Assembly: GCA_963704755.1 (NCBI GenBank)
Contig: OY969938.1
Location: 1,320,001 to 1,352,000, forward strand
Reading direction: 5' to 3'
From: an uncultured Chloroflexia bacterium
Lineage (GTDB): Bacteria; Chloroflexota; Anaerolineae; Anaerolineales; Anaerolineaceae
DNA length: 32,000 nt
Part shown: positions 8,628 through 28,453 of the stretch, in pieces
Layout of the letters: each line of letters starts with the position of its first letter
Numbering within the stretch: the stretch's first letter is position 1
Notes under the pieces: model-generated
Seen by the model: only the letters and a program-made list of their open reading frames with translations
Told to the model about the DNA's origin: nothing
Database searches by the model: none
Program-made: the position numbers and the translations under genes

Positions 8628-8685
8628 TTCAGGTTTGATTTTTGGCGGTTTCACCACCAAAAATCAAACCTGAATTATTCTTTTT
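8628..8685. terminator. terminator hairpin between convergent genes (perfect 18-bp stem)
   Basis: ttcaggtttgatttttgg (8628-8645) / ccaaaaatcaaacctgaa (8657-8674), followed by ttattcttttt. The T-tract is good only for the plus strand. Confidence 0.7.
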
Positions 8686-9313
8686 AGCTATGGCTGCCAC
8701 GAAACTCATCCATGATGACCTGTTTCGAGGCATTGATTCCTTCCCGGCGGGCTACTTTCCAAACCGTTAGAAAAAGGATCTTCGCGTCCAGCCAAAACGA
8801 CCAGTGATCTACATACCACACATCCAGGGCAAACTTTTCTTCCCAGGTGAGTGCGTTGCGGCCATTGATCTGGGCCCAACCGGTGATACCGGGCAAAACA
8901 TCGTGCCGGCGGGCCTGTTCCGGCGAATAGCGCTCCAGGTATTCCACCAACAGCGGCCGCGGGCCAACCAGGCTCATTTCGCCGCGTAAGACATTGACCA
9001 ATTCGGGCAGCTCATCCAGGCTGGTTGCCCGCAAAAAACGGCCTAACCCTGTCAGGCGCTGCGCATCCGGCAGTGGCCGGCCTTTGCGATCGACAGTCAG
9101 GCGCATCGTTCGAAATTTAAACAGAGTAAATATGGTTCCCCCCAGGCCGGGACGCTTTTGGGCAAAAATAATCGGGCGGCCTTCAGTTAAATATACCATC
9201 CCGGCCACAACCAACATGGCCGGGATGGCCACGACAAGGCTGGGGATACAAACGGCCAGGTCCAACGCGCGCTTGATGATGGGCACTTTCCGGTGGAAAT
9301 CCTGTTTATTCAC
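8684..9313 (-). CDS. polyprenyl-phosphate sugar-1-phosphate transferase (small monotopic PGT, PglC/WbaP C-terminal type)
   Basis: GTG start at 9313. One N-terminal hydrophobic helix, then the bacterial sugar transferase core including KFRTM and DELPELVNVLRGEMSLVGPRP. Confidence 0.85.
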   Translation of the reverse strand: MNKQDFHRKVPIIKRALDLAVCIPSLVVAIPAMLVVAGMVYLTEGRPIIFAQKRPGLGGTIFTLFKFRTMRLTVDRKGRPLPDAQRLTGLGRFLRATSLDELPELVNVLRGEMSLVGPRPLLVEYLERYSPEQARRHDVLPGITGWAQINGRNALTWEEKFALDVWYVDHWSFWLDAKILFLTVWKVARREGINASKQVIMDEFRGSHS

Positions 9314-13324: not shown

Positions 13325-14650
13325 CTATCCCTTACGTGAAAGTTTCAGCACGGCGCCTTTGTTTAAATCCAGCATATAAATCTCACCGGAGGCGTCCTGG
13401 CCAAACGAGCTGATATTACCCTGGCTGGGGAACAACAGCGCGGACTGCCAGTCGCCGCTGCCTGATTTGAGCAATCCCCAAACATTCCCAGTGCAGTAAT
13501 CGCTGAACAGGTAAACTCCGTAGAATTCTGGCAGCGTCCCACCACGGTAAACGTATCCGCCGGTCACCGCACAGCCCTGTGAATGGTCGTATTCGAAGAT
13601 CGGGTCGGTGAAATTTGCGCTGCTGCTGCCGTCTTTGTACGGATGCAACCCTTCGCGCACACTCCAGCCAAAATTCGTTCCCGCGCCGGTGCCGGCCGGC
13701 AGATAATCGATTTCCTCATACTTATCCTGGCCTACATCGCCGATGTACAGGTCGCCGGTCAGTCGATCGAATGAGAATCGCCAGGGATTGCGCAATCCCA
13801 GCGCCCATACTTCCGGAGCCCCGCTGGCATTCTGAGCGTAGGGGTTATCCGCCGGAATGGTGTAGGTATCCTGCCCGCGCACATCGATGCGCAAGATCTT
13901 GCCCAATTTATTGGCCGGATCCTGGGCAGTATTGTTAGGGTCGCCTTCCGAGCCGCCGTCGCCCGTCCCGATGTACAGGTAACCATCCGGGCCAAATGCC
14001 AGTTGGCCGCCGTTGTGATTGGGGAACGGCTGCACGATCTTCATCAAGACCTGTTCCGAGGCCGGGTCGGCTGAAAGGCCGTCGTCAGCGGCTTTAAAGC
14101 GCGAGACGGTCGTGTTGCCCTGCGCGTCGGTATAGTCCAGGTAAAAGGTATGGTTATTCGGGTAGTCCGGGTCAAGGGCAATTCCAAGCAGACCCTGCTC
14201 GTTGCCGCTGCTGTCCACCCGGTCGCTGATATCCATAAATGGGTCGGTGAGCAAGCGCCCGCCCTGGATGCCGCGAATGCGCCCGGGCTGTTCCAGCACC
14301 AACAGCAGGCCATTATCATCGTTAGAATCAACCAGCGCGGTTGGCCGTTTCAGGCCGTCCACCACCTGGACCCATTGGAAACCGGATGGATCCGGCAGGC
14401 TGGCCACCACCCCGATTGTCGGTGCCGGGGTATGGGTAGCCGTTGCGGTAGAAACTGTAGTCGCCGTAAGTGCCAGTGGGCTGGGGGATGGTACGATCGT
14501 GGGGGTATCCGTGCCGGCCGGCTCGAAGGCCGTTGGGACGGCCGGCGACGTGCTATAAGGCGTTTCCAGAGGCGGCGAGCAGGACACCAATACCAAGACA
14601 CAGGCTGCCAGTATTACCGGTAACCGCATGCGCGCGTGAAATGGGTTCAT
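13325..14650 (-). CDS. PQQ-dependent sugar (glucose/sorbosone-type) dehydrogenase, lipoprotein
   Basis: Signal peptide with lipobox LVSC, then a TP-rich linker. Beta-propeller motifs PNHNGGQLAFGPDGYLYIGTGDGG and GLRNPWRFSFD are present. Confidence 0.85.
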   Translation of the reverse strand: MNPFHARMRLPVILAACVLVLVSCSPPLETPYSTSPAVPTAFEPAGTDTPTIVPSPSPLALTATTVSTATATHTPAPTIGVVASLPDPSGFQWVQVVDGLKRPTALVDSNDDNGLLLVLEQPGRIRGIQGGRLLTDPFMDISDRVDSSGNEQGLLGIALDPDYPNNHTFYLDYTDAQGNTTVSRFKAADDGLSADPASEQVLMKIVQPFPNHNGGQLAFGPDGYLYIGTGDGGSEGDPNNTAQDPANKLGKILRIDVRGQDTYTIPADNPYAQNASGAPEVWALGLRNPWRFSFDRLTGDLYIGDVGQDKYEEIDYLPAGTGAGTNFGWSVREGLHPYKDGSSSANFTDPIFEYDHSQGCAVTGGYVYRGGTLPEFYGVYLFSDYCTGNVWGLLKSGSGDWQSALLFPSQGNISSFGQDASGEIYMLDLNKGAVLKLSRKG

Positions 14651-15034: not shown

Positions 15035-15064
15035 CCAGCACCTCCGTAAAAGCTTACCCGACCA

Positions 15065-15829
15065 TTATAGACGGAATAAGCGCCGCCGTTTCCAGTTGAT
15101 GTAGGGAGCGGCCAGTTTTCTAATCCAATACTTAAATACGATGGGGGCAAAAGGTGTGCCGCCGTCGCGGTAATGTACCTGCAGCATCTCCGGCCAGCAG
15201 CGATCGTCGGCCGAGATGGTTTTGGCGTCCGAATGCAATCGGAAATTCGCCCACAACGCCGGGTGGTAGTCCAGAGGGGCCAGCCTGGCCAGGCGTACCC
15301 ACAAATCGTAGTCCATGGCGAAGTAAAAGCTGGGGTCCAGGGGTCCCACCTGGCGCCACAAACCTGCCCGAAAGAAAGAGGACTGCTGGGGGATATGCAC
15401 ATAGCCGGTGCGCAGGCGCCGGTAATCGGTCTGGGCGGCCGGGAAACGCCCGATCACCCGCCCGCGCTCGTCGATGTAGCTGGCGTCGCCATAGACCATG
15501 CCGGCTTGCGGGTGGGCCTGCAAATATTCCACTGCCTGGCGGACCGCGCCGGGGTTGAAGGTGTCGTCCGAATTAATCCAGGCCAGAATATCGCCGTGGG
15601 CATGGCTGAAGCCTTTATTGAGGGCATCCGTCTGCCCGCGGTCTTTCTCCGAAACCCACCAGGCCAACCGGCCAGCGTATTTTTGAATGATCTCCTGGCT
15701 GCCATCGTTCGAGCCGCCGTCCACCAGGATATATTCGATTTGCGGGTAATCCTGGTCGAGCACCGAGCGAATGGTTTCCTCGAGGAAGCGCGCCTGGTTA
15801 TAAGAAGGGGTCACAATCGAAACCAGCAT
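15065..15829 (-). CDS. glycosyltransferase family 2
   Basis: VSIVTPSYNQARFLEETIRSVLDQDYPQIEYILVDGGSNDGS plus INSDD (DxD-type). AGGAGAG SD upstream. Paralogue of 18851..19807. Confidence 0.88.
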   Translation of the reverse strand: MLVSIVTPSYNQARFLEETIRSVLDQDYPQIEYILVDGGSNDGSQEIIQKYAGRLAWWVSEKDRGQTDALNKGFSHAHGDILAWINSDDTFNPGAVRQAVEYLQAHPQAGMVYGDASYIDERGRVIGRFPAAQTDYRRLRTGYVHIPQQSSFFRAGLWRQVGPLDPSFYFAMDYDLWVRLARLAPLDYHPALWANFRLHSDAKTISADDRCWPEMLQVHYRDGGTPFAPIVFKYWIRKLAAPYINWKRRRLFRL

Positions 15830-15838
15830 GTATCTCTC

Positions 15839-17275
15839 CTAAGGCAGAGCCGTGATCGAAGCGACCCCATAATAACCCGCCGCGCAGGTATTGACCCAAT
15901 TGGTAGCAATTGGGCCCATGTCTTCCAGCCCGGAAACCACGTCCACCTCCGGGACAACCAGGTCGCGCTGGCCGTTGGCACGATCGGCCAGGATTTCAGC
16001 GTTGCGGCTGTCCCAACGGGCAGCTTTGGTCTGCAAAACCTGGATCTCCGGCCGCATCAGGCTGACGGCCCGCAACGGATAGAGCGCCAGTACCACCAGG
16101 GCCAGCAAGGCCGCCGCCCGCACCAATCCGCTGATCGCCCGGTCAGCCAGCCAGGCGGAAACGGCCATGCCCAGGCAAACAGCCGCGGCGCCCAGGCCGG
16201 ACAACAGGGCAAAGCGGGCCACCATTAAAGCCCGCCCGGCCGGGTAGAGCAGGCCGCCGTACACACTGGGGGCAATGGCGCAAATCACCAGGGCAAAACC
16301 AGCTGCCAGGGCGCCGGCTGCACCCCACAACAGCCCCTTGATTTTCGGCTTCATCTTAATCGAACCCGCCAGCAGGCCACAGCCGCCGGCTAAAAGCAGG
16401 TAAACCGCCAGGGGTAAGGGCACCGTGCGGAATAAATCGACCACAAAATCGACCGAATAGCGCAGGCTGTAGGGAATCAGGTCGATCAAGTGGGCCGGTG
16501 GGGGCATGACGGCCTGCCGCCAGGCGTTGGCCGGTGAAAGGGCCATGAGCAGCATGGCCAGCAGGGTGACCGCCAGCGGCGGCCACACCAGGGCAATCCC
16601 GCGGCTTATCTGCCGCCGCCAGCGCAGCACGATTACCAGGATCAGCGCCAGGATAAACGCGCCGGCCTGGAAGGCGGCGTAGGTCTCGGAAAGTCCGGCA
16701 GCCAGGAAAGCCAGGGGGGTAGTCAGCCATAGCACGCCCAGGCCCCGATGCGCCTCGAAGCCGCGGAACCAGGCCCGCAAACTCAACCAGACGATCAACA
16801 GGAACAGAACCAGGGGCAGGCTGTAATGGAGAGTGCCCATGCGCCAATAAATCGACTGGAGCCGGTCTGGAGCGGCGTAGGCGGCCGTGAAAACCAGCCC
16901 GGTGGAAAGAACCAGCCAGAGCCCGGCTGGATGCCGGGTGTTCAAGCGGTTCGCAGCCGCCCGCAGAGCCAACCAGGCGGCGGCCAGCCAGCCAAACAGT
17001 ACGACCGCCGGCTGCCAGCGCACGGCATTGGGCCCGAACAAATCGCCCAGGGCCACCATCCACACGGCCGAAAAACGATTTCCGCCGGTCTGGTACCAGT
17101 CCAGCGTGCCATTGAACAGCCCGCGATCCTGGACCTCATTGGAATAGCAATAATCGTCCGCCCACAGGCGCGAACTATTGCCCGCGTAGGCAATCGCCGC
17201 CACCCCGGCCAGAAAGCCCAGCAGGGCCAGGCCAATCAATAACGGTGTAATCCAACGGAATTTCGTCAGGGACAT
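15839..17275 (-). CDS. polytopic membrane protein, possible GT-C-fold glycosyltransferase or glycan polymerase
   Basis: 478 aa with at least 10 hydrophobic helices. An acidic motif (LWADDYCY) sits in the first predicted external loop, as in GT-C enzymes. Its start is 1 nt after the upstream stop. Confidence 0.45.
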   Translation of the reverse strand: MSLTKFRWITPLLIGLALLGFLAGVAAIAYAGNSSRLWADDYCYSNEVQDRGLFNGTLDWYQTGGNRFSAVWMVALGDLFGPNAVRWQPAVVLFGWLAAAWLALRAAANRLNTRHPAGLWLVLSTGLVFTAAYAAPDRLQSIYWRMGTLHYSLPLVLFLLIVWLSLRAWFRGFEAHRGLGVLWLTTPLAFLAAGLSETYAAFQAGAFILALILVIVLRWRRQISRGIALVWPPLAVTLLAMLLMALSPANAWRQAVMPPPAHLIDLIPYSLRYSVDFVVDLFRTVPLPLAVYLLLAGGCGLLAGSIKMKPKIKGLLWGAAGALAAGFALVICAIAPSVYGGLLYPAGRALMVARFALLSGLGAAAVCLGMAVSAWLADRAISGLVRAAALLALVVLALYPLRAVSLMRPEIQVLQTKAARWDSRNAEILADRANGQRDLVVPEVDVVSGLEDMGPIATNWVNTCAAGYYGVASITALP

Positions 17276-17276
17276 T

Positions 17277-18782
17277 TTATGATTTCGGGCTCCTCAGGTC
17301 ATAGACCAGGTAACCATCCCCCTGGCGATAGACCGGGTAATTATCGGCCAACAATTGCTTGACCTGCGGCTGTTTGTTCAATTCGTCAAAATCGGTGATC
17401 AAGAAAAAGTCTTTCCCGCCGGTCTCCTGCTTGAAATAGGAGCCCAGGTCAAAACTCTGGCCGGCCATCTCGCGCAGGTTGATATCCGCCGTGCTGAACC
17501 AGTTGGTTACGTCCAGCCAGCCCCAATAGGTAAACGCCGTGCTGTATTCTGGAGCAATCGCCACAATTTTATCATCCGGGGTGAATATCGCGCTGATCTG
17601 CTCCACCTGGGCCACCGCCTGGTTCTCGTTCACCGATTTGAGCGTATCGCGGGCAGCATAGATCTGCGACAGGCCAAACACGGCCAGGGCGGCGGCGACG
17701 GCCAGGGTTGCCAGCCAGCGCGGGCCCTGCAAGGACGAGAGCACCCTTTGCAAACCTGCCCCCGCACCCAGCGCGACCAGGGGCAGCAGCGGCAACTGGT
17801 AGTAATCGTGAGTAGAAATGTAATACGAAAACAGGACGCCGTACAGCAGGTACGCCGCCCCGGCCCCCAGCAGCAGCCCGCGCTTGGATCTGCCGGGCAG
17901 GCTGAAGATCCCCAGTGCTGCCAGCAGCACCCAGGGCAGCGGTGTGACCGTATCGACCTTCAACATCCACTGTAAGTAGAAGACTGGGTCCGACCACATC
18001 TGCGGGAAGAAGCGTAAACTAAACTGGCCCTGCATCAGGCCCAACCCCAGGGTAGTATAGGCCAGGTAAGCCCCGTAAGGCAGCACCGCCAGCACATTGA
18101 CCAGCCACCACTGCTTGCTGCGCAAGGCGTTTTTCAGGCCCAGGCCCCCCAGCGTCAGGCCGACCCAGGCGCCGGCCACAAAAAAAGCGGCTGTCGATTT
18201 GACATACACTGCCAGGCCGGTCAGCAGCCCGGCGGAAACCGCCCTGCCCCAACCAGGCTGCTGCTGCCAGCGCAGCATGCCCCACCACGACCAGACAATC
18301 ATGGCGACCATCAACGGATCCGGCTGGAAGGAGCGTGAAGCCAGGATGCCGTACTGCAGCAGCATATACAACAACAGGGCCACCAGCGCCCCCCAGCGGC
18401 CGATCAGCCTGCGCCCCAGCAAGTACAGACCAACACCGCCCAACGTCCAGAAAAAAATGGTGTACAGGCGTGGGATCCGCAGGTCGGCCGCGCCGGCCAG
18501 GCGATAGCCCCAGGCAGCCAACGTTTCCATAATCTGCGGCTCGATCAGCCCTTCGGCCTGCTGCTGGTGGATGGCGCGCTGCTGCTGCCATTGCGAAACG
18601 TCATCCAGGGTGCTGTAATACATCCCACGCGCGATCAGCGCCGAATGCAACTGGCGGGTAGCGTGAAAATCCAGCGGGGCGTCGCCCAAATCGTACAGCC
18701 GGATGGCCAGCCCGGCCACCAGGATCAGTAAAACGGCCGCCCAGTTGGCCAGGTTGGACCAGCGCAGCGGTTTAGCAGCCAA
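17277..18782 (-). CDS. GT-C glycosyltransferase, PMT_2/ArnT (GT39/GT83-like) family
   Basis: TTG start at 18782, with an in-frame TAG 5 codons upstream and GAGGG 8 nt upstream. The N-terminus LLILVAGLAIRLYDLGDAPLDFH is typical of PMT/ArnT-like enzymes. The protein is 501 aa and polytopic, with a soluble C-terminal domain. Confidence 0.65.
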   Translation of the reverse strand: MAAKPLRWSNLANWAAVLLILVAGLAIRLYDLGDAPLDFHATRQLHSALIARGMYYSTLDDVSQWQQQRAIHQQQAEGLIEPQIMETLAAWGYRLAGAADLRIPRLYTIFFWTLGGVGLYLLGRRLIGRWGALVALLLYMLLQYGILASRSFQPDPLMVAMIVWSWWGMLRWQQQPGWGRAVSAGLLTGLAVYVKSTAAFFVAGAWVGLTLGGLGLKNALRSKQWWLVNVLAVLPYGAYLAYTTLGLGLMQGQFSLRFFPQMWSDPVFYLQWMLKVDTVTPLPWVLLAALGIFSLPGRSKRGLLLGAGAAYLLYGVLFSYYISTHDYYQLPLLPLVALGAGAGLQRVLSSLQGPRWLATLAVAAALAVFGLSQIYAARDTLKSVNENQAVAQVEQISAIFTPDDKIVAIAPEYSTAFTYWGWLDVTNWFSTADINLREMAGQSFDLGSYFKQETGGKDFFLITDFDELNKQPQVKQLLADNYPVYRQGDGYLVYDLRSPKS

Positions 18783-18850
18783 GTCGGTATCCCTCTAGGA
18801 CCGCTTCGGAAACGAAAAAGGCAATGGCCATGGACAAATTGATCAAAGTC

Positions 18851-19807
18851 TCATTTCTCGGAAGTTGCCCGTCCGGCCAGGCGCTGCTTGCGCCGTTCCA
18901 GGTAAGCCGTACGCAGGCCTTCCAGGCCCAGCGGGCTGAACAAGGCATATAAAATCCGGCGCCAGTCCGCCAGCGCCACGCCAGGCGACTGCCAGGCCGC
19001 TTTCCAGTAGTCCTGCAAGGCTTTGCCGGGTAACCCCGCATCCAGGGCATAGAACGCATTGAGCCGGTGCGCCCCTGCCCACATTTTACGCCGGTTCGAG
19101 CGGGCAACGGCCGCAAAATCCGGATCCGATTCGAGCCAGCACGCAATGCGGTAGGCCTCTTCGCCAAAACGAGCCCCCAGGGCCATATTCTTGGCTTGCG
19201 GGTGAAAACGGGCGGCCGCCCAACGGACCCCGCGGGCGTGCTCCATAGGCGCAAGATTGGCTATACGCAGCCATAACTGGTGGTCGAGCAGGTACTGGTA
19301 GGAAAGGTCCAGCAGTCCGGCCTGTTCCAGTACCTCCCGGCGCATGAAGACCCCCGGTTGGCCGATGATCTTGAAATGCAGCAGGTCTTCCAGGCCCCAA
19401 TCGCCGTAACGCATAATGTTGATCCGTTCGCCAGCCGCGTCGATTGATTCGACGTCCGAATAGGCCAGCCCGATCGACGGGTTGACCCGGAAGAACTCGA
19501 CCGCCTGGGCAATCGCGCCCGGCCGGTACAGGTCGTCCGAATTTAACCAGGCCACGATCTCGCCCTGGGCACGCTGCAGGCCCTTGTTGATCCCGTCCGC
19601 CTGGCCGCGGTCGGGCTCCGAGACCCACCAGGCCAGCCGGTCCGCGTACCTGCGAATGATCTCCAGACTGCCATCGTTCGAGCCGCCGTCCGCCACCAGG
19701 TACTCGATGCGCGGGTAGGACTGCTCCAGCACCGAGCGCAGGGTCTGCTCCAGGTACGCTGCCTGGTTATAGGACGGGGTGATGATCGAGACGAGGGGGA
19801 AAATCAT
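18851..19807 (-). CDS. glycosyltransferase family 2 with C-terminal extension
   Basis: VSIITPSYNQAAYLEQTLRSVLEQSYPRIEYLVADGGSNDGS plus LNSDD. By eye, the first ~130 aa are about 60% identical to 15065..15829. Confidence 0.88.
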   Translation of the reverse strand: MIFPLVSIITPSYNQAAYLEQTLRSVLEQSYPRIEYLVADGGSNDGSLEIIRRYADRLAWWVSEPDRGQADGINKGLQRAQGEIVAWLNSDDLYRPGAIAQAVEFFRVNPSIGLAYSDVESIDAAGERINIMRYGDWGLEDLLHFKIIGQPGVFMRREVLEQAGLLDLSYQYLLDHQLWLRIANLAPMEHARGVRWAAARFHPQAKNMALGARFGEEAYRIACWLESDPDFAAVARSNRRKMWAGAHRLNAFYALDAGLPGKALQDYWKAAWQSPGVALADWRRILYALFSPLGLEGLRTAYLERRKQRLAGRATSEK

Positions 19808-19841
19808 ATGTTTTTTGGAACCATGAGGTGCGGATTTTCAA

Positions 19842-19983
19842 GTGTCATGTGTCAAGTGTCGGGTGTCACGGACGTGCTTCAGTTTTACGGTGTTTCCGTG
19901 TCTCAGTGCTGGCAGGGATACCCACCTGGCGTCCCAAGTGAAATTGTCAACCCAGAACTGAATCACTGAAACACTGAAGCACT
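19842..19983. repeat. spacer built of phased short direct repeats (gtgtca x4; cactgaa x3) with an inverted partner
   Basis: gtgtcatgtgtcaagtgtcgggtgtcacgg; gtgcttcagtttt...gtgtctcagtgct lies opposite gaactgaatcactgaaacactgaagcac. Confidence 0.6.
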
Positions 19984-19997
19984 CCCCTTACACATTT

Positions 19998-20729
19998 TTA
20001 AAACAAACTATCGTAGATTACCTTCGGGAACACGGTCAGTTTTCCATCCAGGGTCGCGTCCAGCACCTGGCGGCCGGCCTGGTGATAGGCCAGGCGGGCC
20101 GTGCGATAGGCCTGCTCGGAGGTTTCCAGGTCGGGCAATTGCCAGCGGAAACCCTTGCCAAAATAACCGGGATTGAAGTGGTTGGGATCATCCCCGGCGG
20201 ACACGACCGTGGTATTGGGCTTGCCCTTGGTGGCAAAATTATGGTCCACCCCGATCAGGATGACCGTCTCGAAGCCCAGGTAAAAGGCCACCTGCAGGGC
20301 CATATAGGTCACCGTGGCGCCTTCCCACATCCGCCCGGCGATATTGTGGGCAAAGGTCGGGCCGGTATAGGTGGAATAGAGGAAATACAGGTTATCCTGC
20401 GGCTGGAGCCAGTTGTGCGCTCGCCAGGAGACGAAGCGCGGCATCTTTAGCCCGAGGATATCCTCGGCGCACTGCTCGATCACCAGGTCGTTGACCGAAA
20501 GGTAGTAGCTGGTCTGAAAGCCCATGTCGGCAAAGGCCAGGTAGATCCGGTTCAAGCCGATGGTGTACTCATCCCGCAGGCGGGTCAAATCGGTGCGCGC
20601 CAGGCTGGGGCCGTTGCCCAGGATAAAGCAGCGCTCGCCGCGATGAATGTCTTTCAGCGCCGGCAGCTTGCGGATCGTGTCCTGCCGCCAGGGGTGAAAA
20701 GTCGCCTGAGGCCAATCTTTGGCTCGCAC
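19998..20729 (-). CDS. DUF115 / Maf (motility accessory factor)-like protein, candidate nonulosonic-acid transferase
   Basis: GTG start. The pattern CFILGNGPSL...GLNRIY...ALQVAFYLGFETVILIGVDHNF matches the GNGPSL + G(V/I)D core shared by DUF115/Maf and CstII-type sialyltransferases. Confidence 0.55.
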   Translation of the reverse strand: MRAKDWPQATFHPWRQDTIRKLPALKDIHRGERCFILGNGPSLARTDLTRLRDEYTIGLNRIYLAFADMGFQTSYYLSVNDLVIEQCAEDILGLKMPRFVSWRAHNWLQPQDNLYFLYSTYTGPTFAHNIAGRMWEGATVTYMALQVAFYLGFETVILIGVDHNFATKGKPNTTVVSAGDDPNHFNPGYFGKGFRWQLPDLETSEQAYRTARLAYHQAGRQVLDATLDGKLTVFPKVIYDSLF

Positions 20730-20807
20730 CAGGCCGTCCCGGGTTTCGCGCAGCGAATTTCAACCACGGGTCGGGCAGAGCTCCTTTAAGTGTCTCGCGT
20801 AATGAAC

Positions 20808-21560
20808 TCATTCGGTGCTCAACCTGGCCGTCGCGCCGCCGTCCACCACCAACGCCTGGCCGGTCATGAAGGAAGATTGGTCGTGGTCCGCCAGGAAATA
20901 GATGACCTTGGCGATCTCTTCCGAAGTACCCACCCGCCCGTTGACCGTTTTCCGGGCCAGGTTTTCCAGCCGTTCGGGAATGGTGCCGGTACCGCCCAGG
21001 TGGGCCCGCAGCATGGGCGTATCGACCGCACCCGGCAGCACGGCATTCACACGGATATTATCCGGCGCAAACTCGATCGCCATGGCGCGGGTCAAAGCCA
21101 GGATGCCGCCTTTGCTGGCCGCATAAGCGGCGATATTGGCCGATGTGGCAATGGCGTGCACGGACGACGTGTTGACTATCGCACCCCCACCCCCGGCGGC
21201 CAACAGCGGATGAGCCAGTTTGGCGCCCAGGAAGACCGAGCGCAGGTTGGAGGCCATGACTGCGTCCCACTCCTCGACGCTGGTCTCCAGGATCGGTTTG
21301 ACGATCTGGTAGGCGGCGTTGTTGATCAACGCGTCGAGGGTATCGGTATAGTCGCGCGCTTTTTGGTAAATCGCATCGAAATTCTTTACATCCGCCAGGT
21401 CAGCCTGAATGAACAGGCCTGGCTGCGGGAAGGGTTCACCGAAATCGTTGCGGTCCACGCCGATAACCCGCCAGCCTTTTTCAACGAAATAGACCACGGT
21501 GGCGCGGCCAATCCCCCCCGCCGCCCCGGTAATCAACATCACACGGTTTTCTGGATTCAT
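20808..21560 (-). CDS. SDR-family oxidoreductase (classical short-chain dehydrogenase)
   Basis: ITGAAGGIGRA (TGxxxGxG), NNAA, and S...YAASK catalytic residues. ATG 21560 (MNPENRVMLITG) is preferred over the track start 21620, which would add 20 non-conserved residues. Confidence 0.85.
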   Translation of the reverse strand: MNPENRVMLITGAAGGIGRATVVYFVEKGWRVIGVDRNDFGEPFPQPGLFIQADLADVKNFDAIYQKARDYTDTLDALINNAAYQIVKPILETSVEEWDAVMASNLRSVFLGAKLAHPLLAAGGGGAIVNTSSVHAIATSANIAAYAASKGGILALTRAMAIEFAPDNIRVNAVLPGAVDTPMLRAHLGGTGTIPERLENLARKTVNGRVGTSEEIAKVIYFLADHDQSSFMTGQALVVDGGATARLSTE

Positions 21561-21636
21561 TGTAAGTAACCAACCTGTTCTTCGAAGGATGCCCGGCTTG
21601 CCAACCATTTGCTCTAGCAACTACTCAAGCCAATGA

Positions 21637-21729
21637 ATGAAGTTCCTAAATTTGAGGTGTTTGCGGGGGCGATGCACCCGCAAACACCTCAAATTTAGGG
21701 CTTTTCCCATTGGATTGGGCAGTTACTTA
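21637..21729. repeat. palindromic intergenic repeat, copy C
   Basis: gaagttcc + cctaaatttgaggtgtttgcggg (21645-21667) / cccgcaaacacctcaaatttagg (21677-21699) + tail gcttttcccattggattgggcagttactt. Confidence 0.85.
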
Positions 21730-21773
21730 TTTTAAACCATCTCAGGGGATTTTCGGGCGAGGAATTTTTATTT

Positions 21774-21930
21774 CACCGCAGAGGCGCAGAGAGCGCGGAG
21801 AAGAAAAAAGATAACCACGGAGCACGGAGAGCACGGAGAAAAGAAAGAAAAGGGGAGAAGAGAAATTACTATTTACAAGAATGATAGCCTAAAGTGGATC
21901 GGCCCGGTCTCCAGACCGAGGCCGCTCTTC
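21774..21930. repeat. short relative of the 331-bp unit (two triple-heptamer modules + ggcccggtctccagaccgaggccg box)
   Basis: caccgcagaggcgcagagagcgcggagaag, aaccacggagcacggagagcacggag, agagaaattact...gtggatcggcccggtctccagaccgaggccgctctt match modules of 24278..25300 in permuted order. Confidence 0.75.
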
Positions 21931-22018
21931 GGCGTCGGACTACCAGCCCATAGACTGATAGTCCGGTGCTATTTACCCACCACTGCACCGGCCGAACCAT
22001 GCGTGGGCAGCCAGAACT

Positions 22019-22050
22019 CCCCTTCCCCCCGCGAAGCGTGGGGGAAGGGG
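22019..22050. repeat. GC hairpin ccccttcccc / ggggaagggg
   Basis: 10-bp stem (22019-22028 / 22041-22050), about 55 nt downstream of the stop of the minus-strand gene 22106..24169. There is no T-tract on either side. Confidence 0.5.
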
Positions 22051-22105
22051 CCGGGGGATGAGGGCGAAGCGCCGGACCCTCTCCTCGTTGCCTCATTCCT
22101 TCTTA

Positions 22106-24169
22106 CTATTTACTTCCCACAAACGCCGCGCACAAGGTGGTCTTGAAGAATGCGATCTCTGCGGATGTCAACGTCGGGTCACTGGCGGCATCCGGCGCCA
22201 GGAAGCGTTGGCAGACCAGGTAGCGCTGGCGATCATCCTTGTTGAGCTGGTCCAGGATCGGCTGGGCATCCTGCTCGCGATTGGCCCGCACCAGGCCTTC
22301 CAAAAACGGCATCCATTCGGATAGGTCCTGCGGGGCCAGGCCCAATGACTGCACCTGGTCGGCCAGGGAAGTGACCGTGTTCCAATCGCCGGCCTGGCGG
22401 GCCAGGCTGGCCTTTTGATAGTAATAGCACCAGGTATGGGCCGGTTCAGCCCCAAAAATCGAAGCGGGCACCACCGGCGGCTGGGCGGTCACGTCGATGC
22501 GATCCGCTTTCGAATACGGCGCTACTTCATCGACGACCGGGTCTTCCAATTCTGAAAGCTCCAGCCGGCTGCCGTCCTGGACATGGACGCACGAGCCGTT
22601 CCCCGGCCAGGTGATGATCAGCGACTGGTCAAAGTGACGGGTGAAGTCAAACGTGCGCACCGAGCGGTCCGAAGTCGAACCCATGCGCACTTCGTCGGCC
22701 GTGTCCGAGTTGAGCACTTCTGCCACCAGGGTGGTGTTGGCTACCCCGGGATAATAGATCAGGTTGGCCGGTGAGAAGGCCTCATAGTCCTCGGCCAGGC
22801 GGTAGCCGCTCGGCAGGTAGGCCATCAGCACCGTGTCTGGCTCGATCTGCGGGATGCGCCAGGAGACCTGCCACCAGAATTCCTGCTGATAGCTCCAGGC
22901 ATGCTTCCAGAAATCGATATTGTGGTACTGGGTCATGATCGAGATCACGATCAGGCCGGCCAGCAGCGGCGTGCGCCAGCGGGAGCGCACCGCCAGGAAG
23001 ATCAACCCGCCCAGCAGCATGACCACGCCCACCGTGGCCTGCAAGGTGTAGCGGTCGAACTGGTCCTTGAAATAAACGGTCCGGTCCGAGAGCAGCACCG
23101 GGATGAGCGTCACCAGGACGCCCAGGCCGCCGATGATGATGGCTGCCAGTTTCCAGCGGGCTGCCTGTGGATCCGCCTCTTCGGCGTCTTCTTCTTTCGC
23201 TACCCGGCGCCGTACCCAGCGGCGGTAACCCAAAAAGATCGCCGCGCCGGCCAGTCCCAGCGCCAGCGAGGCAAACCACAATCCGTAAGCCGAGAAGGTC
23301 GTGAGCTGGTAAAAGGGCACAAACCAGGCCAGCACGGTGGTTTCGAAAAAGTCCTTGATGGTTTCGGCTGCCAGTTGGACCGTCATGGCGAAAGGCGCAG
23401 CCAGATATTTGTGCGCCAATACCCCGGTGCTGGTGGCATAACGGGTGCTCTTGTAAATAAACACCCGCCAGAAGACGAACCCACCCACCACGGCCAGGTA
23501 AGGCAGCCAGATGAGGACCACTTTCTTGACCTGTTTCCAGAAGGGCAGCGGCTCTTCGCGCCAGGTCAGGTACCAGATCAGAAACAGGCGGATTCCTTCC
23601 AGGCCGATCATGTATTCGTAGATCAACGCGCACAGCAGCATCAAGGCCATCGACAGGCCGGTCAAGGCTGCTCGCAGTCCCTTGCGGGAGGTCTGCAAGG
23701 CCAGCACGGTCAGCAGCAGCGATAGAATCCCGGCGCTGTAGCCGACGAAATGGTTCTGGAAGGTGGCCGCATTGGGCTGCTGCATAAACCCCGGATAGAC
23801 GGCGAACAAAGCCGACATGGCCGTGGTCGCATAGACCTGCTTCGGCCACAGCTTGCGCAGCAGCCAGAACAGCCCGACCACGCCGGCCAGGCGGGCAAAG
23901 AAGGCAAACCAGGCCCAGGCGTGCGGGCTGTCGCCCAAGATATCGAAGGTGAACGCGTTGACGACCCCCATGAACGGTCGGTCGATCGAGAATTCCTCGA
24001 CGATCTTCTGCGGGCCGTAGGAATCACCGGCAAAGATCATATGCCAGTCGTCTTTGTAGAACCCCAGGCTTTGAATGTGCGGCAGGTTGCTGATCGAATA
24101 GAGCACCACAACCAGCAGGAGCGAAATAATCCATTCCCGGCGGGGAAGGCTGAGTTTTTGAGAAGTCAT
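22106..24169 (-). CDS. large polytopic membrane protein, GT-C-like N-terminal domain + soluble C-terminal domain
   Basis: 687 aa. It has an N-terminal TM, then GFYKDDWHMIF (an acidic first-loop motif), then about 12 further helices and a ~270-aa non-membrane C-terminus. ATG at 24169. Confidence 0.5.
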   Translation of the reverse strand: MTSQKLSLPRREWIISLLLVVVLYSISNLPHIQSLGFYKDDWHMIFAGDSYGPQKIVEEFSIDRPFMGVVNAFTFDILGDSPHAWAWFAFFARLAGVVGLFWLLRKLWPKQVYATTAMSALFAVYPGFMQQPNAATFQNHFVGYSAGILSLLLTVLALQTSRKGLRAALTGLSMALMLLCALIYEYMIGLEGIRLFLIWYLTWREEPLPFWKQVKKVVLIWLPYLAVVGGFVFWRVFIYKSTRYATSTGVLAHKYLAAPFAMTVQLAAETIKDFFETTVLAWFVPFYQLTTFSAYGLWFASLALGLAGAAIFLGYRRWVRRRVAKEEDAEEADPQAARWKLAAIIIGGLGVLVTLIPVLLSDRTVYFKDQFDRYTLQATVGVVMLLGGLIFLAVRSRWRTPLLAGLIVISIMTQYHNIDFWKHAWSYQQEFWWQVSWRIPQIEPDTVLMAYLPSGYRLAEDYEAFSPANLIYYPGVANTTLVAEVLNSDTADEVRMGSTSDRSVRTFDFTRHFDQSLIITWPGNGSCVHVQDGSRLELSELEDPVVDEVAPYSKADRIDVTAQPPVVPASIFGAEPAHTWCYYYQKASLARQAGDWNTVTSLADQVQSLGLAPQDLSEWMPFLEGLVRANREQDAQPILDQLNKDDRQRYLVCQRFLAPDAASDPTLTSAEIAFFKTTLCAAFVGSK

Positions 24170-24277
24170 TGATTTGATCCCAAGGGTGTGAGTAGGTACA
24201 GCACGCCTTATTGTAACGTGAGTTTGGAAAATTTCGTAGGCGCAGGAAAATCACCAAAGTGTGGGGAGAAGAGATTA

Positions 24278-25475: not shown

Positions 25476-25556
25476 CTAATCGCTAACAGCTAATTGCTAA
25501 TCGCTAACAGCTAATCGCTAAAAGCCAACCGCTAATCGCTACCCGCTATCCGCTCC
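25476..25556. repeat. microsatellite-like ctaatcgcta(a/c)cag repeats overlapping the 3' end of the CDS 25532..26503
   Basis: ctaatcgcta occurs 4 times, plus the variant ctaattgcta. On the minus strand it reads tagcgattag..., giving TAG in multiple frames. Confidence 0.75.
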
Positions 25557-26503
25557 AAATCTCTCGCATCGATGCCCAGACCCTCCAGCATGTTGCGGAT
25601 GGTGCTCCAGTGCACCCGCTCCCAGGCGGACGGGCTGGAATTGGTGTTGTGCGGGGCCAGCATGACGTTATCCATCTTCAGCAGGGGCGAATTGGCCGAC
25701 AGGGGTTCCACCTCGAACACGTCCAGGGCCGCTCCGGCGATCTGGCCCTGCTGCAGGGCCGCGACCAGGGCGGGCTCGTCCACCAGCGGACCGCGGGCCG
25801 TGTTGATCAAAATGGCTTCTTTCTTCATCCGGGCCAGGGTTTCGGCCCGCATAATGTGCAAGCTGCTCGGGTTCAAGTCGCAGTTCAGGCTGACAAAGTC
25901 GGCCCGGGCCAACAACTCGTCCAGCGGCAGCATGGTGACGCCGTTCTCGATCACAAAATCCGGTGCAATGCGGATAATATCGTTGCCCAGCAGGTCCATA
26001 CCAAAGGCCCGCGCCCGGCGGATGACGGCCTTGCCGATATTGCCCAGCCCGATCACCCCCAGGGTGCACTCGGAAAGCGAACGTCCGGGCAATTTGGTCC
26101 AGGCGCCGGTCCGCATGGCCCGGTCCATCCAGGGCTGGCGGCGGGCGAAGGCCAGCATGTAGGCCATTACACTGTCCGCAACCGGTAAGGTGAAGGCGTT
26201 CGGCGTGTTGCGCACCTGGATCCCCAGCCGGGCAGCCGCCTGCTGGTCGATTGAATCGATCCCGGTGCCCCACTTGGAGATCACCTTCAGGCGCGGCAGG
26301 CAGGCCTGCTGGACCCGCTCGCTGAAACGGTCATCGCCGCACAGGGCCGCGTCGAACTGGCCGGCGAAACGTAAAATTTCTTCTTCCGAAAGGCGTTCGT
26401 TGACCTCCGGGACGATCAAATCCAGGTTGTAATGGGCAAAGACCGGGCGAAATCGGTCCAGAAAAGGCAGTAAATAGGGTGCAGATACCAAAACGGTTGG
26501 CAT
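25532..26503 (-). CDS. D-isomer-specific 2-hydroxyacid dehydrogenase (PGDH/GhrB-like), NAD-binding
   Basis: GLGNIGKAV (GxGxxG), NTARGPLVDE, and the ALDVFEVEP...LAPH catalytic His region, in a 323-aa protein. Confidence 0.85.
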   Translation of the reverse strand: MPTVLVSAPYLLPFLDRFRPVFAHYNLDLIVPEVNERLSEEEILRFAGQFDAALCGDDRFSERVQQACLPRLKVISKWGTGIDSIDQQAAARLGIQVRNTPNAFTLPVADSVMAYMLAFARRQPWMDRAMRTGAWTKLPGRSLSECTLGVIGLGNIGKAVIRRARAFGMDLLGNDIIRIAPDFVIENGVTMLPLDELLARADFVSLNCDLNPSSLHIMRAETLARMKKEAILINTARGPLVDEPALVAALQQGQIAGAALDVFEVEPLSANSPLLKMDNVMLAPHNTNSSPSAWERVHWSTIRNMLEGLGIDARDLERIAGSD

Positions 26504-26517
26504 GGATGGATGGGCTC

Positions 26518-27216
26518 CTATGATTTTGTTTCCTCGCCTGATTCCAGGCGCCTGCTCATCAGCGTGTCCGCGACCAGGAAATCCAGTTCCTCGTCGATGT
26601 CCCAGGCTTCGGCTGCGTCGATTTGGTACAGGTACGGCCGTTCGCCGATGCGGTTACGGCGCTGTTCCAGCGTCCGCCTGCTGAACATATATATACACGA
26701 GTTTTCTTCATACACCGGAGGCAGGTCCTGGGTGCGCAGCAAAATAGCCGGGTTATGGTTGATCGGCCGGGCCAGGCCGTCCCACAAGCGGGATTGCAGG
26801 CGGGTGACCGAAAAGAGCGAATCGTAAGCGGGGTAATTTTGAGAGAATACATCGATTGTGCGAGAAATCGTCTCTGCTTTCAAAAGCGGGTTAGTCGAAT
26901 GGGTTTGCAGGTAGAAATCGGCCTGAAACTGGGAGGTATCGTACATCAAAATCTCGTTCATCGGCACGGTATCCGCGGTCAGCTCGACCGGCCGGCGCAG
27001 CACCTGCACCTGGGGGAACGCCTGGGCAATCCCTTCGATTAGCACGTCCGAATCGGTATCCACCACCACCCGGCTGATCTGGGGCACTTGCAGCAAAGTC
27101 GCCAGGATGTGCTGGTAGAGCGGCTTGCCTGCCAGGGGCCGGTAATTTTTCCCCTGCACCCGGACCGAATTGTGCCGCATGGGCACCAGAGCGCAAATAC
27201 TGAACGAATTATTCAT
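26518..27216 (-). CDS. NeuA/KdsB-family cytidylyltransferase (CMP-nonulosonate/ulosonate synthetase-like)
   Basis: The N-terminus ALVPMRHNSVRVQGKNYRPLAGKPLYQHIL matches the acylneuraminate cytidylyltransferase P-loop pattern (IPAR.GSK....KN...L.GKPL). 232 aa. Confidence 0.75.
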   Translation of the reverse strand: MNNSFSICALVPMRHNSVRVQGKNYRPLAGKPLYQHILATLLQVPQISRVVVDTDSDVLIEGIAQAFPQVQVLRRPVELTADTVPMNEILMYDTSQFQADFYLQTHSTNPLLKAETISRTIDVFSQNYPAYDSLFSVTRLQSRLWDGLARPINHNPAILLRTQDLPPVYEENSCIYMFSRRTLEQRRNRIGERPYLYQIDAAEAWDIDEELDFLVADTLMSRRLESGEETKS

Positions 27217-27487: not shown

Positions 27488-28453
27488 TTAACCCTCGTAT
27501 TTGATCGGCGCGACCTCACGCCGGTCGGGTTCGCCGGCCAGGCCGGCATCGGCCCGCGGATAATAAAAGGTCTGCTTCAGCTTCCAGGTCAGCGGGCCGG
27601 ACTGCTGGTAGCCCTTGTAGGTACCCCAGAACTGCATCAGGCGGAAGCGGGCGATATTGAGCCACTCGCGGCCGAGCGCTTTCTCTTGCCCGGCGGCGCG
27701 CCAGTCCGTACGCACGTTGGTCCACCACAGGCGCAGGAAATCGTTCAGGCCAAACCGTTCCTGCGGGTAAATCTGCTTGAAGGCCATGCCCTCACGACGG
27801 TAGCGGTTAAGAATACCTTGCCAGGTCTCGTTGTGCACGTGGATAATCTCGGCCTCGGCCACATAAGCAATGGCCTGGCCCTGTTCCTGGGCCCAGCGAG
27901 CCCAACCCAGGTCTTCCAGGCCGGGCAGCAGCTCATCGTAGGGATGCTTCTGCCACAGCCCCCGGCGGATGGCGGCGTTGGCGTTGTTGCAGAAGGGCGT
28001 CGGCTGGTGGGCCAGCGACTGATCGGGGAACCAGGTACAAAAGATCTGGTGCTCGGAATATTTCGAACTCTGCGCCCCGCGCTGCTTGCCGTAGCTGACC
28101 GCCACCTGCGGGTCGTCGAACGGCTCCAGCAGGCGCTCGAGCCAATCGGGATAGACCGGGTACACGTGGGCCGAGGCCATCACCACCAGGTCACTGCGCG
28201 CCTGGGCCACGCCCAGGTTGAGCGAACGTCCAAAGGTGAACTCCTGCGGATGAATGTGCACCACTTCGACCGGGAAGCGCGAAGCGATGCTCACGGTGGC
28301 GTCCTGCGAACCCGAATCGACCAGGATGATTTGCACGTCCTTGACCGTCTGCTCGAGAATGCCGGTCAGCAGGCGGCCGATATGTTTCTCCTCGTTGTAG
28401 GCCCGGATCACAATCGAGCAGCGCGGTTTGGCCGTGTTGGCGTCCTCAGTCAC
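27488..28453 (-). CDS. glycosyltransferase family 2
   Basis: CSIVIRAYNEEKHIGRLLTGILEQT...ILVDSGSQD. GTG 28453 gives a GTGACTGA overlap with the upstream stop (28446-28448). The track start at 28513 would overlap the upstream gene by 68 nt. Confidence 0.82.
   Translation of the reverse strand: MTEDANTAKPRCSIVIRAYNEEKHIGRLLTGILEQTVKDVQIILVDSGSQDATVSIASRFPVEVVHIHPQEFTFGRSLNLGVAQARSDLVVMASAHVYPVYPDWLERLLEPFDDPQVAVSYGKQRGAQSSKYSEHQIFCTWFPDQSLAHQPTPFCNNANAAIRRGLWQKHPYDELLPGLEDLGWARWAQEQGQAIAYVAEAEIIHVHNETWQGILNRYRREGMAFKQIYPQERFGLNDFLRLWWTNVRTDWRAAGQEKALGREWLNIARFRLMQFWGTYKGYQQSGPLTWKLKQTFYYPRADAGLAGEPDRREVAPIKYEG

Follow-up and report, generated by a model that had tools for sequence, protein, structure and literature searches.

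Why does an uncultured bacterium of the Anaerolineaceae encode three large polytopic membrane proteins among soluble sugar enzymes, and what would these proteins glycosylate? The question is raised by a 32,000-nucleotide stretch of contig OY969938.1 (positions 1,320,001 to 1,352,000, GenBank assembly GCA_963704755.1; here, the window), in which positions 15,065 to 24,169 hold a minus-strand group of such genes. A preliminary description took the group for a possible protein O-glycosylation system, in which three membrane-bound glycosyltransferases of the C fold class (GT-C) would place a glycan, possibly capped with a nonulosonic acid (NulO), on the Thr/Pro-rich linkers of exported proteins. 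All the open reading frames (ORFs), motifs, and tracts that it listed were found where it had placed them. We find that a cluster of about 22 kb is conserved across the Anaerolineae and that this interval is its distal half, the one with the membrane enzymes. The cluster probably builds a surface glycan; there is good support for a NulO glycan that GT-C enzymes complete outside the membrane, and the glycan is possibly attached to lipoproteins that the cluster itself encodes.

Fold and conservation of the three membrane proteins

Each of the three proteins begins with a short positive N terminus, a first transmembrane (TM) helix, TM1, and a long acidic loop with a conserved Asp. They are encoded as follows:

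15839..17275, minus strand: DUF6056 protein, 478 amino acids, probable GT-C enzyme, accessory; Pfam DUF6056, E 1.5e-13, above cut-off.
17277..18782, minus strand: PMT_2 protein, 501 amino acids, GT39/GT83-like GT-C enzyme; Pfam PMT_2 (PF13231).
22106..24169, minus strand: BIG687, 687 amino acids, predicted GT-C fold, core cluster member, without a Pfam model.

BIG687 matched no Pfam or NCBIfam family, and a Pfam scan of 72 homologues at E values up to 1 gave no family in more than two members. A CopD identity, suggested by an isolated match below threshold, was rejected because it did not recur in the other 71 members. The homologues are full-length proteins of about 670 amino acids that are labelled “hypothetical,” and those carrying a taxon label are nearly all from Anaerolineae. 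At least 535 loci encoding the family were found in a scan of one genome per species, while a profile search collected 4203 clusters at 50% identity with E values of ≤1e-3, of which 1575 had E values of ≤1e-30.

The acidic first-loop motif FYKDDW that had been noted for BIG687 is present at residues 37 to 42. In the 72 homologues, G36, D41, W42, D63, R64, and P65 of the first outside loop are invariant, with Y38 and D40 conserved to at least 90%. Further invariant residues are E185 and E191 at the outer end of TM5/6, the arginines R235, R243, and R363, and, in the C-terminal domain, C527 and C581. Eight TM helices are clear by hydropathy and about 12 to 13 are seen in the AlphaFold model; residues 1 to 13 carry three Lys or Arg residues, and the loop at 33 to 85 carries eight Asp or Glu and three Lys or Arg residues.

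The AlphaFold2 model of BIG687 (pLDDT 94.2, pTM 0.93) was compared with the PDB using Foldseek. Ranks 1 to 11 were taken by STT3B, AglB, yeast and canine STT3, PglB, ArnT, and DPY19 with probabilities of 0.99 to 1.0, and AftD followed at rank 20 (probability 0.96); matches outside the GT-C class had probabilities of no more than 0.3, with a TM-score of about 0.1 for transporters. As modeled, BIG687 is a GT-C-fold enzyme and neither a transporter nor a Wzy/WaaL-type protein, and its predicted structure is nearest to the catalytic subunits of oligosaccharyltransferases (STT3/AglB/PglB) and then to ArnT. It founds a large, previously unrecognised GT-C family without a Pfam model. Residues 429 to 439 read EFWWQVSWRIP (family consensus LWWQLSWRAP, without Asp); this stretch lies at the end of the last TM helix and the start of the outside domain, which is the position of the oligosaccharyltransferase WWDYG, a positional likeness only. 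The outer C-terminal domain has TPR/PPR-like helices, and its residues 592 to 641 match designed PPR/TPR-like repeats.

For the DUF6056 protein, the described motif LWADDYCY was recovered at residues 37 to 44, right after TM1. Among 65 homologues, W38, A39, D40, and D41 are at least 90% conserved, and R67, E197, and R348 are invariant. Its AlphaFold model (pLDDT 94.2) matched STT3A at a probability of 1.0 (TM-score 0.45, E 1.3e-3), AglB at 0.92 and 0.84, and AftA at 0.72, and the remaining matches, transporters included, were below 0.3. Judged by this model, the protein is probably a GT-C enzyme, with weaker support than for BIG687. Homologues occur in Anaerolinea thermophila and Bellilinea caldifistulae. 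Full-text literature searches returned no functional paper on DUF6056.

It is very improbable that BIG687 and the DUF6056 protein are instead transporters, flippases, or Wzy/WaaL-type polymerases or ligases lying in a sugar cluster. Such roles would supply the exporter that the cluster otherwise lacks, and they would fit the low Foldseek TM-scores to GT-C structures (0.28 to 0.45), the many transporter matches lower in the lists, and the one weak CopD match of BIG687 below the Pfam cut-off; however, GT-C structures matched at probabilities of 0.72 to 1.0, against the low values for transporters, and the CopD match stands alone in its family. The conserved Asp pair after TM1 and the long first outside loop are GT-C hallmarks. 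None of the matches listed for either protein is a WaaL, Wzy, or SEDS (RodA, FtsW) structure, and no Wzy_C or O-antigen ligase Pfam domain was found on the membrane proteins or on the 72 BIG687 homologues. A transporter or Wzy/O-antigen-ligase fold of these two proteins, named beforehand as an outcome that would speak against GT-C enzymes, was thus not what the modeling gave.

The PMT_2 protein was correctly recognized as a PMT_2/ArnT-like enzyme: its Pfam match spans residues 88 to 234 (E 1.4e-10, 42.1 bits against a cut-off of 26.1), and its homologues go by the names “glycosyltransferase family 39,” “ArnT-like,” and “RgtA/B/C/D-like.” Invariant residues of its first outside loop are D34, P36, F39, R43, Q44, E81, and P82, and one or two copies are present in 20 syntenic loci. 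Ornatilinea apprima likewise encodes a homologue. The suggested parallel with actinobacterial Pmt did not hold at the level of orthology, as the protein has no PF02366/PMT_4TMC match, while some of its homologues bear a PF02366 annotation. Neither phmmer nor a 51-sequence profile gave a match to Pmt1/2 or ArnT in the PDB.

Searched singly or as profiles against solved structures, none of the three membrane proteins matched a GT-C enzyme by sequence, and their sole match was that of the TPR/PPR-like stretch in BIG687. Comparison of the family profiles aligned PMT_2 with BIG687 from the first loop to TM3 at a marginal level (probability 44%, E 2.3e-4), and no relation was seen for the other two pairs. 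Because only this one pair aligns, and marginally, the three families are not recent paralogues. The view that the interval encodes three GT-C-like polytopic proteins is borne out by Pfam for PMT_2 and by model and Foldseek for BIG687 and DUF6056, and all three are best read as GT-C glycosyltransferases.

A conserved cluster with a nonulosonate pathway

The other cluster genes in the window are the following:

31132..32000, minus strand: CMP-nonulosonate synthetase/HAD fusion, C-terminal part with HAD domains, cut by the window end.
30087..30962, minus strand: NeuB-family nonulosonate synthase, 291 amino acids; Pfam NeuB, E 2.5e-73.
28446..30077, minus strand: Capsule_synth protein, KpsC/KpsS-like, 543 amino acids, no TM helix; Capsule_synth, E 5.6e-6, above cut-off.
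27488..28513, minus strand: glycosyltransferase family 2 (GT2) enzyme GT2c, 341 amino acids, cytoplasmic; Glycos_transf_2, E 2.6e-24.
26518..27216, minus strand: stand-alone CMP-nonulosonate synthetase, NeuA-like, 232 amino acids; CTP_transf_3, E 3.5e-29.
25532..26503, minus strand: D-2-hydroxyacid dehydrogenase, 323 amino acids, member of a conserved trio (see below); 2-Hacid_dh_C, E 1.6e-59.
20808..21620, minus strand: short-chain dehydrogenase (SDR), 270 amino acids, neighbor of BIG687; adh_short_C2, E 3e-56.
19998..20729, minus strand: MptE-like protein (PF01973/DUF115, Maf/CstII-like), 243 amino acids; MptE-like, E 5e-11.
18851..19807, minus strand: GT2b, 318 amino acids, cytoplasmic; Glycos_transf_2, E 1e-26.
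15065..15829, minus strand: GT2a, 254 amino acids, cytoplasmic, last gene of the cluster; Glycos_transf_2, E 5.5e-31.

The cluster occupies about 15.0 to 32.0 kb of the window and continues for 4.8 kb past its end. The continuation was read from a contig (L084) that overlaps window positions 28871 to 32000 at 99.9% identity, extends 4.8 kb further, and holds the full CMP-synthetase/HAD gene (409 to 412 amino acids, CTP_transf_3 and Hydrolase_3). In the source organism, the gene order is TagF-like, GFO/IDH/MocA oxidoreductase, two Thr/Pro-linker lipoproteins, SDR, CMP-synthetase/HAD fusion, and NeuB; then KpsC/S-like, GT2, NeuA-like, D-2-hydroxyacid dehydrogenase, BIG687, and SDR; and finally Maf/CstII-like, GT2, PMT_2, DUF6056, and GT2. 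The GT2 genes at 15065-15829 and 18851-19807 indeed lie among the three polytopic genes, and a terminator-like hairpin (15017-15000) is found directly downstream of GT2a.

For the synteny survey, window proteins were compared by tblastn with 80 loci encoding BIG687 relatives, in which genes were called crudely as the longest nonoverlapping ORFs. In about 20 genomes, the recurrent order is CMP-synthetase/HAD, NeuB, Capsule_synth-like, (GT2), NeuA-like, D-2-hydroxyacid dehydrogenase, BIG687, SDR, MptE-like, GT2, PMT_2 (one or two copies) and/or DUF6056, and GT2. Because gene order is shared with about 20 other Anaerolineae genomes, the clustering is not due to chance. Across the class, the cluster contains three GT2 enzymes and one to three GT-C enzymes in addition to BIG687. 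BIG687 is linked to nonulosonate or CMP-sugar genes in 36 of the 60 loci that are at least 12 kb long, in two different arrangements, and in 31 of these 36 it is linked to at least three such genes. Thus, the link between the GT-C genes and NulO synthesis that had been suggested from this one locus is a conserved one.

The second arrangement consists of NeuB, CMP-synthetase/HAD, SDR, PMT, 3'-phosphoadenosine 5'-phosphosulfate (PAPS) synthase, PMT_2, and BIG687, followed downstream by a GFO oxidoreductase, a sulfotransferase, a small EamA-like protein, TagF-like, and GT2. One locus, L037, encodes a 149-amino-acid EamA-like protein with four TM helices (14686-15135) that could be the missing flippase for a lipid-linked sugar in this arrangement. 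The same locus encodes, at 17677-19158, a 493-amino-acid polytopic protein without a Pfam match and with MPLDFFDW after TM1, which may represent another GT-C-like family.

The minimal unit, which is never split, comprises the NeuA-like, BIG687, and 2-hydroxyacid dehydrogenase genes in either order; this trio is retained where other cluster genes are absent (for example, loci L007, L010, L034, L035, and L047). To our knowledge, no GT-C enzyme uses CMP-activated donors. Other members vary: DUF6056 is present in 5 of about 20 clusters, the copy number of PMT_2 differs, BIG687 is often tandemly duplicated, and the number of GT-C genes per cluster ranges from 2 to 4. Between genomes, identity is 57 to 77% for the cytoplasmic enzymes versus 31 to 49% for the GT-C enzymes.

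A noncoding gap of 1.36 kb separates BIG687 from the dehydrogenase gene in the window; in the closest relative (L083), only about 30 bp stand in its place. The gap holds repeats at 24277-25297 and 25375-25554, namely, a 331-bp unit in 3.1 copies at 97% identity, followed by two 52-bp hairpin units with about 11 heptamers CTAA(T/C)CG. Each repeat unit bears small terminator-like hairpins and matches no Rfam family or tRNA, and a strong terminator-like hairpin (25471-25449) lies just past the dehydrogenase stop codon. Pieces like this array occur also at about 21815-22096, and a second tandem array at 11280-11941 (a 222-bp unit in 3.0 copies at 90% identity) lies between the D-Tyr-tRNA deacylase and IF-3 genes. 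The two arrays and the scattered pieces suggest a dispersed intergenic repeat family in this genome. Rfam and tRNA scans of the window were empty.

Which sugar does the pathway make? The NulO genes reported at 30 to 32 kb were identified as NeuB and the CMP-synthetase/HAD fusion. Together with the NeuA-like protein, which matches solved NeuA enzymes over its full length (E 2.5e-16), they indicate one or two CMP-activated nonulosonic acids, as far as family assignments can tell. In the window and the 4.8 kb beyond, no NeuC, PseB/C, LegB/C, aminotransferase, or dehydratase was found, and the only other candidate sugar enzymes are GFO/IDH/MocA, SDR, and HAD proteins. Since NeuC, an aminotransferase, and a dehydratase are missing from the examined sequence, we infer a Kdn-like sugar made from a sugar phosphate. 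The SDR at 20808..21620 is syntenic in related loci, with 64 to 76% identity.

Two proteins may handle the activated sugar. In Maf nonulosonate transferases, PF01973 forms the catalytic domain, which is GT42-like (10.1101/2020.06.03.131540), and the MptE-like protein, which matches the WaaZ Kdo transferase and PseD weakly and whose N-terminal GNGPS stretch matches the sialyltransferase CstII at an E value of only 0.9, is probably a CMP-ulosonic-acid transferase. The Capsule_synth protein, syntenic at 49 to 62% identity, may be a CMP-ulosonic-acid transferase or else a polymerase.

The GT2 enzymes are closest to chondroitin/heparosan-type synthase domains. GT2a, which is 60 to 77% identical across syntenic loci, has its best match among solved proteins in the C-terminal domain of chondroitin synthase K4CP (E 4.7e-23, residues 2 to 205), while ArnC and DPM synthase match at about 1e-5 and at the N terminus only. 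Among solved proteins, GT2c is nearest to polysaccharide synthases; its listed start overlaps the upstream gene, so that it probably begins further in. GT2b adjoins the MptE-like gene in syntenic loci. A role as Ppm1-, GtrB-, or ArnC-like lipid-sugar synthases is unsupported, as the best relatives are polysaccharide synthases, and by homology the GT2 enzymes probably extend a glycan rather than charge polyprenyl phosphate.

A further candidate lies 6 kb from the cluster:

8684..9313, minus strand: small PglC-like phosphoglycosyl transferase; Bac_transf, E 2.5e-62.

It has no homologue near the cluster in the 80 related loci. As it is syntenic in no relative, we set it aside as the initiator of the cluster, priming of the lipid carrier being just possible. 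The small ORF at 14654-15034 gave no family match.

Thr/Pro linkers and possible acceptors of the glycan

The upstream part of the cluster, past the window end, offers candidate acceptors:

L084 1913-3557 (1.2 to 2.8 kb past window position 32000): two lipoproteins, each with a lipobox, a linker of Thr, Pro, Ser, and Ala, and a Cys-rich domain.

The two are paralogues and lie between the GFO/IDH/MocA gene and the SDR gene that precedes the CMP-synthetase. In their family, a linker of 60 to 90 Thr, Pro, Ser, and Ala residues is followed by a domain of about 150 residues with at least 10 conserved cysteines, whose conserved core reads CETECRIAPDGNPCIVATCTDACG. In L083, L002, and L033, two or three members of this family stand in tandem in the corresponding place, and further members are found in L085 to L110. 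Three other loci (L022, L072, and L074) carry at that position a different lipoprotein family with a long Thr/Pro/Ala linker. Neither family has a Pfam model. Thr/Pro-linker lipoprotein genes are therefore found inside the cluster in all seven loci whose upstream sequence is long enough for the comparison, the background frequency of such tracts being about 3% of ORFs; as the genomes are related, this result rests on at least two independent families rather than on seven independent events. When metagenomes were scanned for the Cys-rich domain, 26 loci encoding it in full were obtained; in at least 16 of them the lipoprotein gene lies directly between the GFO gene and the SDR, CMP-synthetase, and NeuB genes, and in 5 it lies elsewhere.

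Glycosylation loci that include the genes of their own substrates are familiar from flagellins, pilins, and serine-rich adhesins. The sugars that mycobacterial Pmt adds to lipoproteins go to Thr-rich N-terminal stretches directly following the lipobox (PMC5673659). The outer C-terminal domain of BIG687, with its TPR/PPR-like helices and conserved cysteines, lends further support to a protein acceptor.

The window itself encodes four exported proteins with Thr/Pro-rich tracts, outside the cluster:

2356..2994, plus strand: membrane-anchored protein, 212 amino acids, Thr/Pro tract between two membrane anchors.
5774..6970, minus strand: DUF389 membrane protein; Pfam DUF389 and SH3_3, Thr/Pro linker before the outside SH3 domain.
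7580..8611, plus strand: lipoprotein without a Pfam family, 343 amino acids, Thr/Pro linker directly after the lipobox; its start reads ...LAGCNGAASTPTPTPVPV.
13325..14650, minus strand: GSDH lipoprotein (pyrroloquinoline quinone-type glucose/sorbosone dehydrogenase); GSDH, E 3e-45, Thr/Pro linker after the lipobox.

These tracts stood up to scrutiny. The best 16-residue windows contain 11, 12, 9, and 9 Thr plus Pro residues, respectively, in the order listed, while the other 21 window proteins reach at most 5. Of 500 shuffles within each protein, 0 to 11 attained the observed value across the four proteins (0 for 2356-2994 and for 5774-6970, 11 for 13325-14650), and all four tracts lie in parts predicted to be extracellular. 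The wider statement that such linkers occur in nearly every secreted protein holds for the four non-enzyme exported proteins of the window but not for related loci, where, among about 900 ORFs, a tract is present in 7.7% of those with a hydrophobic N terminus versus 1.3% of the others, a six-fold enrichment. The GSDH lipoprotein flanks the cluster, lies beside GT2a also in L040 and L060, and is a possible glycosylation target. The C terminus of the protein at 2356-2994 consists of ALPTTG, a hydrophobic stretch, and RRIR; this LPXTG-type signal suggests sortase-mediated anchoring. Near it, a RelE-family toxin gene (3326-3652) lies in a low-GC stretch (about 48 to 50% GC, about 2 to 5 kb).

These tracts invite the simplest scheme, in which the PMT_2 protein O-mannosylates most secreted Thr/Pro linkers, chain extension falls to the other GT-C enzymes, and a nonulosonate forms the cap. 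The PMT_2 family match, the presence of a tract in each of the window's four non-enzyme exported proteins, the six-fold enrichment among the exported ORFs of the clade, and an actinobacterial precedent (PMC5673659) agree with it. We nonetheless regard it as improbable, because the 501-amino-acid enzyme matches the broad PMT_2 model only and shows no similarity to solved Pmt1/2, because no Ppm1-like polyprenyl-phosphate mannose synthase is evident in the window (the 4.87-Mb genome could encode one at another site), and because BIG687 is constant while PMT_2 varies in copy number. Capping outside the membrane would also be topologically awkward, since CMP-dependent nonulosonate transferases act in the cytoplasm.

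We favor a different pathway, which can be laid out as follows. (i) NeuB, the HAD phosphatase, and the two cytidylyltransferases would make one or two CMP-nonulosonic acids, likely Kdn-like, in the cytoplasm. (ii) On the inner side of the membrane, the soluble GT2, KpsC/S-like, and Maf/CstII-like enzymes would build an acidic glycan, with polyprenyl phosphate as its carrier. (iii) A flippase encoded elsewhere would take the glycan outside. (iv) BIG687, which is always present, would perform the conserved transfer step at the outer face, and the variable PMT_2 and DUF6056 enzymes would add lineage-specific sugars from polyprenyl-phosphate-sugar donors. (v) The preferred acceptor would be the Thr/Pro linkers of the cluster lipoproteins and perhaps other Thr/Pro linkers, such as the four in the window. 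A NulO glycan cluster with GT-C enzymes finishing the product outside and lipoprotein Thr/Pro linkers as the acceptor is, in our judgment, the best overall explanation of the data, at a little less than even confidence; the acceptor taken by itself, the linkers and first of all those of the cluster's own lipoproteins, is proposed more tentatively still.

The same machinery could, with a real chance of being the correct account, make instead an acidic, NulO-containing wall or sheath glycopolymer or lipoglycan to which the Thr/Pro linkers are unrelated. In this case, the GT-C enzymes would act on the polymer outside the membrane, lengthening or decorating it, in the manner of arabinan or lipoarabinomannan (LAM) or of Gtr-type side chains. 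Polymer-type enzymes abound: the Capsule_synth (KpsC/S-like) protein in the window, the TagF-like Glyphos_transf protein just upstream, and PAPS synthase, sulfotransferases, and acetyltransferases in relatives. The variation from two to four GT-C genes per cluster and the small EamA-like protein of the second arrangement, a four-TM candidate flippase for polyprenyl-phosphate sugars, fit as well, and Thr/Pro linkers are general among exported Anaerolineae proteins. There is also a precedent in a single-membrane bacterium, the Kdn-galactose teichulosonic acid of cluster SCO4873-4882 (PMC11481543; PMC13011467). Such a polymer, however, leaves the presence of two Thr/Pro-linker lipoprotein families at the same cluster position unexplained; no LCP ligase, Wzx/Wzy, or ABC exporter is found in the window or in the conserved core; and the outside end of BIG687 is formed by TPR-like helices, not by a carbohydrate-binding module. 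The linker acceptor is thus only slightly ahead of a wall-bound polymer, and the two could be combined if a polysaccharide-like chain were transferred as a block onto the linkers.

A more specific version, which we consider unlikely, is that BIG687 is a new O-linking counterpart of STT3/PglB, found almost exclusively in Anaerolineae and placing a nonulosonate-bearing glycan on the linkers of the cluster lipoproteins, or else that it uses an ulosonic donor. Wedged as it is between the CMP-nonulosonate synthetase and the 2-hydroxyacid dehydrogenase, BIG687 might use a lipid-phosphate-linked ulosonic acid donor; we know of no description of such a donor.

The following points weigh against the explanation that we favor. 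(i) On the structural side, TM-scores of BIG687 to GT-C structures are low (0.26 to 0.35), which we attribute to differing outside domains; Foldseek E values of BIG687 and the DUF6056 protein to GT-C structures are modest (6.5e-5 to 1.3e-3); one match alone of the DUF6056 protein reaches a probability of 1.0; and the WWDxG motif of oligosaccharyltransferases is absent from BIG687. (ii) About 40% of the long BIG687 loci are paralogues in unrelated, mixed neighborhoods; in the surroundings of 20 such paralogues outside the cluster, the neighbors among 127 ORFs included ABC_tran (6), GT2 (6), MoeA (4 to 5), and WbqC (4), an uninformative set. (iii) As had been remarked for the window, no Wzx, Wzy, or ABC exporter was found in any scanned window ORF, nor was any flippase family. 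(iv) No polyprenyl-phosphate sugar synthase was seen in the window, and since the GT2 enzymes resemble glycan-extending synthases, the lipid-linked donors of the GT-C enzymes have no visible source. (v) Several GT-C enzymes in one cluster are the pattern of mycobacterial arabinan and LAM rather than of protein O-mannosylation, and the KpsC/S-like, TagF-like, PAPS synthase, and sulfotransferase proteins are typical of wall or capsule polymers. (vi) The lipoproteins could be accessory factors instead of substrates, and everything about the donors, the acceptor, the order of the steps, and the nature of the sugar acid is inference. Of the original idea of a protein O-glycosylation system, then, the GT-C identity and the link to NulO stand, whereas the protein acceptor has circumstantial support, from the lipoproteins in seven of seven loci.

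Comparison with known systems and significance

Among known enzymes, the GT-C(A) class with STT3/AglB/PglB and ArnT provides the best structural matches of BIG687, and STT3A and AglB those of the DUF6056 protein. BIG687 shares with them an inside N terminus, a long Asp-bearing first outside loop, about 12 to 13 TM helices, and an outside C-terminal domain, but no detectable sequence similarity. It differs from oligosaccharyltransferases in having “WWQ” in place of WWDxG at a comparable position and TPR-like helices in the outside domain, and its context of CMP-nonulosonate synthetase and 2-hydroxyacid dehydrogenase is not known for oligosaccharyltransferases or ArnT. The actinobacterial Ppm1/Pmt system resembles the locus in its PMT_2-family GT-C enzyme and in lipoprotein Thr/Pro regions straight after the lipobox (PMC5673659), whereas the window has no PF02366/PMT_4TMC enzyme and no visible Ppm1-like synthase, and combines three GT-C enzymes, a nonulosonate pathway, and candidate substrates in one cluster.

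Three-component Gtr systems (GtrA/GtrB/Gtr*) and GT136 pentofuranose systems likewise place GT-C enzymes of lineage-variable number and type in a glycan cluster (PMC11127046). The window, unlike them, encodes neither a donor synthase of the GtrB-like or phosphoribosyl type nor a flippase, its GT2 enzymes look like the glycan-extending kind, and only relatives with the second arrangement have a candidate flippase, which is EamA-like. The Kdn teichulosonic acid of Streptomyces (SCO4873-SCO4882), compared here by description, is a nonulosonate wall polymer with a NeuB-type pathway in a single-membrane organism (PMC11481543; PMC13011467). Flagellin islands with Maf join a PF01973 protein, nonulosonate genes, and the gene of the glycosylated protein in one locus (10.1101/2020.06.03.131540). 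In contrast, the window protein of 243 amino acids comprises the catalytic core only and lacks the domains that flank it in Maf. No flagellin gene accompanies it, and a Maf-type enzyme in the cytoplasm would have difficulty reaching the candidate substrates, which are lipoproteins exported by the Sec route. Finally, the mycobacterial arabinan and LAM enzymes (AftA, AftD, and Emb) also represent several GT-C enzymes acting on one envelope glycan, and AftA and AftD are among our matches, but decaprenyl-phosphate-arabinose genes are absent here, and the Foldseek E values are weaker than those of the oligosaccharyltransferases.

In its overall working, the system resembles known GT-C-dependent envelope glycosylation. 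Compared with known GT-C systems, the new features are a GT-C family without a Pfam model, nearest in predicted structure to oligosaccharyltransferases but devoid of WWDxG, its fixed association with a CMP-nonulosonate synthetase and a 2-hydroxyacid dehydrogenase, the combination of up to three or four GT-C enzymes with a nonulosonate pathway, and candidate substrate lipoproteins within the cluster.

Anaerobic digesters, activated sludge, and sediments harbor Anaerolineae in large numbers. Our full-text literature searches found no relevant work on nonulosonate or GT-C genes or glycoconjugates in this class, while the extracellular polymers of granular sludge have been investigated with regard to nonulosonic acids (10.1101/2023.03.24.534144). 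The present analysis defines a class-wide conserved cluster, a large GT-C family hitherto annotated as “hypothetical,” and candidate substrate lipoproteins. Whether, and by what, the Thr/Pro linkers of Chloroflexota are glycosylated thereby becomes a testable question, and BIG687 would also merit attention in glycoengineering should it turn out to be an O-linking relative of the oligosaccharyltransferases.

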